Position numbers and translations under genes: made by a program. The notes beneath the pieces were generated by a model that did no database searches, was not told where the DNA came from, and saw only the letters and a list, made by a program, of their open reading frames with translations. Source: Isurus oxyrinchus (Eukaryota). From it: 64,000 nt of DNA. Shown here in pieces: positions 41,256-43,330 of this stretch (the stretch's first letter is position 1; each line of letters begins with the position of its first letter). The stretch lies in the NCBI GenBank assembly GCA_026770705.1, contig JANJGN010000041.1, forward strand, positions 1,302,001-1,366,000. The letters are read 5' to 3'.

Positions 41256-41876
41256 TGTAATTAATGAACCAGCCCAGGATAGGATCCAGCTGCTCAAGGC
41301 CCGTGTGTGTGGACATTACTTGGACCGCCCACTCCTGTGTCTCCTAATTTCGCTCGTTCCAATCGGTAAACACCGCAGGCTGGGGCCGTGCTAACTTTGA
41401 CCAATGGGCGACAGGAGGCTCAGGTACAGGTCACGATCGTTTATTCGAGCAATTGCTAGGAGAGGACCATCTCAAGGCATCATGAGATAGCACGTGGACC
41501 AACTGCAAGCATGCAGCATAATTTACATATTACTGATCCTGTGAAAAAAAAATTCAAATCCAATGCTTGTCAGAATATATGTTATATCATGCATGCTCTT
41601 TCACCCCGTCAGAGATCTCTCCCCCTATCCTGGCTGGGACCATCTGTCCTTTCCTAATCGTTTGAAAAGAGCATTTGGTATATGTTGTTGTCATCCTCTG
41701 TTTCCAAAAAAGGCTCCCAAAGCCTTTCTGTTGTTTGCAGGCTCTAAAGCTGTGCAAGGTCCATCTGGTAACTTTAACTGTTAATGTGCTTGATAGTACT
41801 GGCTGCATGGTGATTTTGAGGAATTCATTCCCTTTCAATTCATTTTCGCTGCATTTCCCCTAATAATCCCTGCTTT
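41256..41876 (-). mobile_element. Degenerate PPT and 3' LTR (~610 bp) of the env-bearing retroelement
   Basis: Minus strand aaagcagggat|tattagggg...AATAAA (41440-41445)...attaattaca; homologous to 13988-14656. Confidence 0.7.
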
Positions 41877-42089
41877 CGGATCTGCACCTCGCCCAGGTTT
41901 TCCAAAATCACTTGTACTGTTCTTCCCTTTATGTACCGCAACCCATTGATACTGGCCTGACATCCACCTTTGCATGTAAAACGGCACTGGTCAGATCGGC
42001 TGTATCATCTGGCCCTTCACCTGAGGCCACGGAATTGCTAAACCTCTTCTCCACCTGTTTATACTCCCCAGCTCCTCTTTTGTAACACT

Positions 42090-43330
42090 TTAGTCATGAT
42101 GAATCACGTATGTTAAATATATAACTGGAATCAGCTGAGACAGAAGCAGGGCATGGGAAATAATCCGAATCCACAGGTGCATTTACACATTGGAGTCCCA
42201 ATTCTACCGTCAACACGAGGAGGAATCTATCTGCTCAATAAACTCTTTTGAGGATCTAAACTGATGCTGCAGTTTACAGTAAGTTCTGTAGAACTGCTGA
42301 GCTTGTCTCCGAATCGGTGTTGGTGCTGTGCTATTTATTGGAATTTTATACGAGAACTGATTCAAATACCGTGTCTGGTTACGGTTAAGGCTTTGCATGA
42401 CCTGAGAAGGAGTCGTTACTCGCTTGTATATTTCGATCAATTGTACCTTTCCCACGCTTGCTGGCTCCTGCAGGTATTGGTACGCCAATTCATTTTGTAT
42501 GGGGCACATCCTCGTGCTCCCATACTGGATCATTTGCTGCCACATGGTGATACAATATCTCCTTTTCCACATGTATGCAACATGGATCGATTCTTTTGCA
42601 TCCCATATAGTTTCAACTGTACAATTTTCAGTTGCTTTAAATCCACAATTTGCTTCCTCCATCTCAAATATGTATGTGTGCATAATAAAGCAGTGCTCTC
42701 GATATCACACTCTTGTAATGTTGTGCTAACTATATTAGCTTCTATGTCTACTGTCTATGGCAGAATGTCATGGTATCTAACATAACAGATTCCCCACATC
42801 ACTCCAATATTTTCTGCTCAGTAAAACCTTCTGCCTGGTGTTGACTTAGATATAACAGGCATTGTCTTATTGATATAAGACAATGCCTGTTAGCACATTA
42901 TTATTGACCAAACATTCAACATTCATTCTATAAACACGTGTTAGACCTCTGAGCTGGCAACCTGTCAAGTCATGATCTTTATTTCGTGAAAGATTAAATA
43001 TATGTTCATTAGTTACGCATAAAGTAACTACCTCTTCATTAATCTGTTTTAAATTCTCTCGGGCTTGTTCCAGTGTCCAGGGTCCATAGGTGCTGCAGAC
43101 AATGTTCTGCGTGCTTCACCTGAACTATGTTTTCCTATCCAGATCAGTTTATTGATATTCCCCGCATTCCCCTTCCAGCATCGTAGCTAGGCTATGAATT
43201 AACTGTATCATGACATGACCTGTATTAAACTGGGTGTTTTGAATTCACTGTCCCCATTTAAAATTTCCATAAGCATGGAGGTCAAAGACTGGTCATTCTG
43301 GTCGACAGTTTACAGGTCAGTAGAGTTAAC
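42090..43330 (-). mobile_element. Endogenous LTR-retroelement env remnant (~400 codons, with stops and frameshifts)
   Basis: VNSTDL*TVDQNDQSL..IVCSTYGPWTLEQARENLKQINE..GCQLRGLTRVY..GIVL..MPVI..AENIGVMWGICYVRYHD..ECDIESTALLC..CGFKATENCTVE..RYCIT..CPIQNE..IEQIDSS..HLWIRIISHALLLSQLI. Confidence 0.8.

Follow-up and report, generated by a model that had tools for sequence, protein, structure and literature searches.

The window, the whole 64,000-nucleotide stretch of DNA analysed here, carries on its minus strand, from 43330 to 41384, the dead 3' end of a multi-copy retrovirus, made up of a decayed env gene, a purine tract and a 482-bp 3' LTR. With a probability of about 0.86, this family is a class III endogenous retrovirus (ERV) related to snakehead retrovirus (SnRV; clade Huo) with an Env predicted to be of the F type, the window copy being its dead fragment. 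The original prediction had suggested a lokiretrovirus-like element with an F-like class I fusion protein or, alternatively, a Gypsy element that had captured an F-like gene. As an F-like env fold is combined here with an SnRV-like reverse transcriptase (RT), the F-like reading holds, and the placement among lokiretroviruses or Gypsy elements fails. What is new here is an intact copy of the env on contig C40 which, judged by its substitutions, is selected. The following features were assigned in the window:

42060..43330, minus strand: decayed 3' env, family codons ~304-727, from alignment to a natural env, with the fold taken from a natural open copy; it contains the putative fusion-peptide end, heptad A, Cys-rich beta domains, heptad B, a Trp-rich stretch, a transmembrane (TM) helix and a short basic tail
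43200..43330, minus strand: putative fusion-peptide tail and start of heptad A (NSTDL*TVDQ segment), from the long helix 81-131 of the model
42102..42225, minus strand: decayed Trp-rich membrane-proximal stretch and TM helix, from the hydropathy peak that the open copy shows at aa 688-699
41866..41877, minus strand: decayed polypurine tract, aligned with AAAAGGGGGGAC of sister copies immediately before TGTTA
41384..41865, minus strand: 3' LTR of 482 bp, with AATAAA at 41445-41440
43331..43650, minus strand: LINE-like fragment at the point of provirus truncation, without Pfam match
13309..14611, plus strand: second, separate family fragment (env codons ~558-723 and LTR), from homology to the family

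The env remnant comprises about 420 codons with about nine frameshifts and eight stops, in agreement with the decayed frame of roughly 400 codons originally described. Alignment with a natural family env over 413 codons revealed 11 indels (the end gap counted as one), of which nine shift the frame, in addition to the eight stops; nucleotide identity to the natural family copy is 79%. A tblastn search with the natural family env located codons 304-713 at 43330-42099 with 350 and 97 bits, while the best of 20 shuffles reached 26.6 bits. The last ~60% of env is present in the window; the signal peptide, the N-terminal domain and the furin site are absent, and LINE-like DNA directly adjoins the gene beyond 43330. 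From its motifs, we take this LINE-like fragment to be CR1-like. The peptide NSTDL*TVDQNDQSL, reported in the original prediction as a heptad-like segment, was found on the minus strand from 43330 and corresponds to the start of heptad A. The TM segment is clear at about 42164-42102, also on the minus strand. The Trp-rich juxtamembrane stretch is decayed in the window, but is found as WWEDLWNW in the open copy. The purine tract is followed by the LTR as had been described. The terminal TG/CA of this LTR is mutated; the paralog L005 retains CA. Env, purine tract and LTR lie within the extent first proposed (41256..43330). However, the LTR ends at 41384, and therefore positions 41256-41383 are only flank. 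A search of the unmasked window revealed no gag or pol match elsewhere in it. The window copy is now inert, without coding function.

Frames of 7TM receptors and SRCR exons are located at window positions 4862-5437, 19296-21368 and 58517-59470. The region with these 7TM/SRCR genes is present in at least 16 copies on contig C41, with 77-99.8% identity. Tandem arrays with units of ~32 bp and ~52-60 bp occupy positions 6250-13250. At 43653-43852, a SINE-like repeat forms a 200-bp palindrome that is nearly perfect (98%); this palindrome is missing in the paralogs L003-L017 wherever the flank is covered.

The genome searched comprises 4.98 Gb. First-look searches gave 2249 candidates at the DNA level and 3484 at the protein level, of which 40 and 128 were scored, and the family comprises thousands of candidate copies. 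On contig C41, 16 full-length matches with common flanks were found. The C41 copies included in a tree form one clade (support 1.0), which nests among two-LTR copies without RT in a star-like burst, and their branches are longer than those of the dispersed copies, in which the match is confined to 43330-41388. The C41 copies are a single insertion that was multiplied along with a host region of SRCR exons and 7TM genes. Elements that combine this LTR with an RT, which the original prediction had proposed to look for, exist elsewhere in the genome. Among 40 longer loci, 37 contain env, 20 RT and 17 both on one strand, the second 20 loci having mostly been picked for RT. LTR pairs are mostly 80-95% identical.

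Fuller copies are organized as LTR-PBS(tRNA-Ser)-gag(2 CCHC)-PR-RT-tether-RNase H-IN-env-PPT-LTR, with the protease motif DTGA. Pfam matches in family copies are zf-CCHC, RVT_1, RT_RNaseH_2, RNase_H, rve and Integrase_H2C2; a match to MLVIN_C is weak (E 0.002). A tether (PF17919) and an RNase H (PF00075) were also detected, a combination common to all retroviruses. In 16 of 22 loci, at least 15 of the 18 PBS bases match tRNA-Ser(AGA), and a pattern-based call gave Ser in three of four loci. Behind the PBS lies a donor-like GGTGAGT, and acceptor-like sites precede the env ATG. Ten loci (L021, L023-L029, L031, L034), about 5.7-7.2 kb in length, have two LTRs without RT and retain part of IN and env; in place of gag-pol, these elements contain ~2 kb of DNA that is AT-rich and free of long frames. 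A deletion of env codons ~75-300, which removes the furin site, is common to L021 (where it is in frame), L024, L025, L029, L032 and L042. Copies with this deletion have nonetheless spread.

A natural stop-free env frame of 727 codons was found at locus L036 (L036:1752-3932; G000:C40:8928251-8930431, minus strand). It encodes a signal peptide, an N-terminal domain of ~170 aa, a Pro/Thr linker, RDKR at 284, heptads, a TM segment and a basic tail, and contains 18 Cys and 10 N-glycan sequons. Neither CX6CC nor CXXC occurs in the 727-aa frame, consistent with the earlier failure to see a gamma-type motif, and no retroviral coat family was matched in Pfam. Because the segment behind RDKR displays no hydropathy peak above 1.2 (over 19 residues), the putative fusion peptide is identified by its position alone, which fits; the segment is weakly hydrophobic.

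Residues 205-727 of the open copy were modelled with AlphaFold2 from 38 alignment rows (pLDDT 73, pTM 0.47). Foldseek against the PDB placed RSV F first (E 5.7e-11), with 246 matches at E<=0.001, and all 39 PDB matches listed are entries of paramyxo- or pneumovirus F. TM-scores of the fold matches are 0.3-0.44. VIA-align ranked NDV F first (Z 11.6, rmsd 17.4, 363 aligned), followed by measles, GhV and PIV5 F, foamy Env (Z 9.0, rmsd 6.6, 266 aligned) and hMPV F, so that ranks 1-6 are F proteins or foamy Env. In BFVD, matches include lispivirus G, the GP of a fish filovirus (Wenling thamnaconus) and baculovirus F, as well as the retroviral Envs of WEHV1 (5e-10), WDSV (3e-7) and FFV (3e-6). A gamma-type Env is not among the fold matches listed, which excludes nothing. 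The env is predicted from this model to have the paramyxo-/pneumovirus F fold, in line with the F-like class I fusion protein first proposed. The original prediction had set such a protein against an epsilon or foamy Env. This dichotomy is false, because WEHV1, WDSV and foamy Env share the same list of fold matches. At the sequence level, Pfam and PDB searches with the env or its profile gave no meaningful match, and PF00523 was not matched at E<=0.1 by the 38 aligned env members. No reliable model of the N-terminal domain was obtained (pLDDT 39), and the ESM Atlas gave no usable match for it.

The provirus at L036 has a broken pol and an open env between LTRs that are 82% alike over 437 nt. 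Genes for histones H1 and H3 lie a few kb past its 3' LTR. Changes found only in the L036 env comprise 26 synonymous, 21 nonsynonymous and no stop changes over 727 codons. The corresponding counts are 167 synonymous and 523 nonsynonymous in 14 pooled sister envs (Fisher p 1.8e-5 versus the L036 env), and 28, 103 and 6 (stops) over 872 codons of the L036 pol (p 3.2e-5 versus the L036 env). The ratio of nonsynonymous to synonymous singletons is thus 0.8 in the L036 env, compared to 3.1 in the pooled sister envs and 3.7 in the broken pol of the same provirus. The C40 env is depleted of amino-acid changes, which as a pattern in the sequence is purifying selection, and the host has likely retained this copy as a gene. 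Less likely, in our view, the frame is open by chance or was patched by recent gene conversion, without having been kept by the host. The open frame is what drew attention to this copy, in a family of thousands of which only a part was scored (128 of 3484 and 117 of 6336 candidates), and its terminal branch may partly reflect evolution in the viral phase. However, all 14 sister envs are disabled, each by 5-18 lesions (mean 12.6), which speaks against chance survival. Synonymous singletons per codon are equal in the L036 env and pol, and therefore both are equally old; this equal load, accompanied by so different a number of nonsynonymous changes, argues against recent conversion of the env. 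Moreover, no copy with more than 83% aa identity was found among the copies scored.

In a second organism (organism B), the provirus is apparently at single-copy depth. There, 2 of 290 sites differ in one env piece, against 128 of 3877 over seven pieces that lie upstream of the gene. This is a weak hint at conservation, drawn from only the longest pieces; the env indels listed occur in compensating pairs. Contigs guessed to be RNA were short and not assignable to the C40 locus, and a search of sequencing runs listed no RNA data set that contained the sequence, the shares seen being small. At somewhat better than even odds, we regard the C40 copy as a paramyxovirus-F-type env domesticated in a shark, a host gene that might act in a syncytin-like or receptor-blocking manner and whose fold would be invisible to screens for ISD and CX6CC. 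F-type Env would then be broad, and probably ancestral, in aquatic class III, epsilon, foamy and loki retroviruses. Co-option of a foamy env has reportedly occurred in a gecko. A screen for shark syncytins (10.64898/2026.05.06.723177) requires ISD and CX6-7C(C); the C40 env would be excluded by this filter because it contains neither ISD nor CX6CC. As an intact, selected copy, C40 makes the domestication of an env testable in a cartilaginous fish, in a case that the filters of published syncytin screens would discard. In the literature searched, which included few subscription papers, no SnRV-like ERV was found to be described with an F-fold Env, and no such Env as co-opted in sharks.

The class III/SnRV placement was made by motif and by hand-counted identity. 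Among 20 RT matches, LPQ[G/D/S]F was found in 10 and [I/L]QYVDD in 12, and the LPQGF/QYVDD motifs are snakehead-retrovirus-like (class III). Over ~160 positions counted by hand, RT identity is ~46% to SnRV, ~37% to WDSV, ~35% to Loki-Str, ~34% to HERV-L and ~32% to Loki-Pma. The RNase H motifs DGSR...TGW and SAQVA.LVAL.EAL are common to the family and SnRV. A scan of IMG/VR with the RT gave no match. SnRV-related ERVs are known from a chimaera (PMC4422223) and chondrichthyan ERVs are dominated by class III (PMC11089739).

The env searches gave 42 homologs with 18-48% identity; those named come from sharks, a skate and frogs. From these homologs, the host is taken to be a cartilaginous fish, likely a shark. 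Word-indexed protein searches with the env found Heterodontus proteins only. No SnRV Env was named among the 16 of 42 homologs that were looked up or carry a name, nor among the 50 BFVD matches listed (3 unnamed). Full-length homologs (P0025, P0027, P0048, P0055-P0074) come from bamboo shark and frogs and differ in their N-terminal domain; 16 cluster members are from Mantella, one record being named Ig-like. The predicted Heterodontus FBXO15 isoforms P0002 and P0003 end in ~150 aa of the family env including the TM segment, by exonisation or as an annotation artefact.

The env need not have been F-type ancestrally. Recombination with a loki-, epsilon- or foamy-like virus may have supplied it to a class III backbone, an origin that we hold possible but doubtful. 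Exchanges between env and pol are described as common in anamniote ERVs in 10.1101/2021.11.23.469661, a gamma env alongside a class III pol among them, and the epsilon Env is characterized there as neither gamma nor beta type; WEHV1, WDSV and FFV Envs are fold neighbours of the family env. On the other hand, searches gave no sequence-level link to loki, epsilon or foamy Env, and the env family, whose members in sharks, a skate and frogs are 18-48% identical, would by this spread seem to be an old, separate lineage. Such a swap is compatible with the preferred reading, an SnRV-related class III virus with a predicted F-type Env, and concerns origin only.

That the family is a chondrichthyan lokiretrovirus, as originally proposed, is improbable. 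Its F-like Env, which has a signal peptide, RXKR, a coiled coil and a TM segment, and its dual RNase H do fit the description in PMC7947760, and the motif NSPIWPV.KP is common to both. However, PFG occurs in 0 of 20 RT matches here, whereas each of the 18 loki RTs that the supplement of PMC7947760 displays has this motif, together with a short spacer in front of YVDD. Most Gypsy RTs shown alongside them there also carry PFG. RT identity by hand count is higher to SnRV, and among the five chondrichthyan genomes screened in PMC7947760 none bears the asterisk that is apparently the positive mark. By motif and identity, the missing PFG and the closer match to SnRV largely refute membership. Least credible of all is a Ty3/Gypsy errantivirus with a captured F-like gene: although the BFVD scores of baculovirus F and of F-like glycoproteins from invertebrates are on a par with that of RSV F, and F-type errantivirus envs are widespread among invertebrates according to 10.1101/2023.10.26.564294, the RT is not of metavirus type by motifs or PDB bit scores (natural frame P0005: foamy 137, MLV 115, HIV-2 79, Ty3 76), the family carries the retroviral LPQGF and a tether with a second RNase H, and that same preprint found no vertebrate homologues of the invertebrate elements.

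Under the class III reading, the virus would have been an enveloped retrovirus primed by tRNA-Ser. Its env mRNA may have been spliced from the donor-like GGTGAGT to the acceptor-like sites before the ATG. Cleavage by furin at RDKR would free an N-terminal fusion peptide, the Env trimer would refold in an F-like manner into a six-helix bundle, and the variable N-terminal domain could serve as receptor binder. The germ-line burst was presumably driven largely by the RT-less, env-keeping elements of 5.7-7.2 kb, likely copied in trans. The window copy is one such insertion, which was truncated at the LINE with loss of its 5' two-thirds, decayed and was multiplied with the host SRCR/GPCR gene cluster.

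Co-opted envs such as the syncytins, percomORF and the gamma-type chondrichthyan candidates of 10.64898/2026.05.06.723177 resemble C40 in an open env under purifying selection within a provirus broken in gag-pol. The C40 env differs from the gamma-type ones in its lack of ISD and CX6CC and in its predicted F-type fold. The closest known system is formed by SnRV and clade Huo, including the CmiERV lineage I of elephant shark (PMC4422223, PMC6001957), which is alike in RT and RNase H motifs, aquatic vertebrate host and full retroviral layout. The class III envs characterised in the literature covered are gamma-type, whereas the family Env here is assigned an F fold. Lokiretroviruses, as presented in the text of PMC7947760, likewise combine an F-like Env (signal peptide, RXKR, coiled coil, TM) with tether and RNase H. 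They differ in the PFG of their RT, and the family env is without a PF00523 sequence match; that text holds no report of them from chondrichthyans. Paramyxo-/pneumovirus F and foamy Env (PMC11468914) are alike in predicted fold (model residues 9-401) and in a cleavage site followed by a long heptad helix. However, identity to the family env is 8-12%, the latter has an extra N-terminal domain of ~170 aa and a Pro/Thr linker, and it is much smaller than foamy Env. The predicted F-type envelope on a class III backbone would add a lineage beside loki and foamy viruses and, together with the fold matches to walleye epsilonretrovirus Env, bears on the question posed in PMC7947760 of whether the first retroviral env was F-like.
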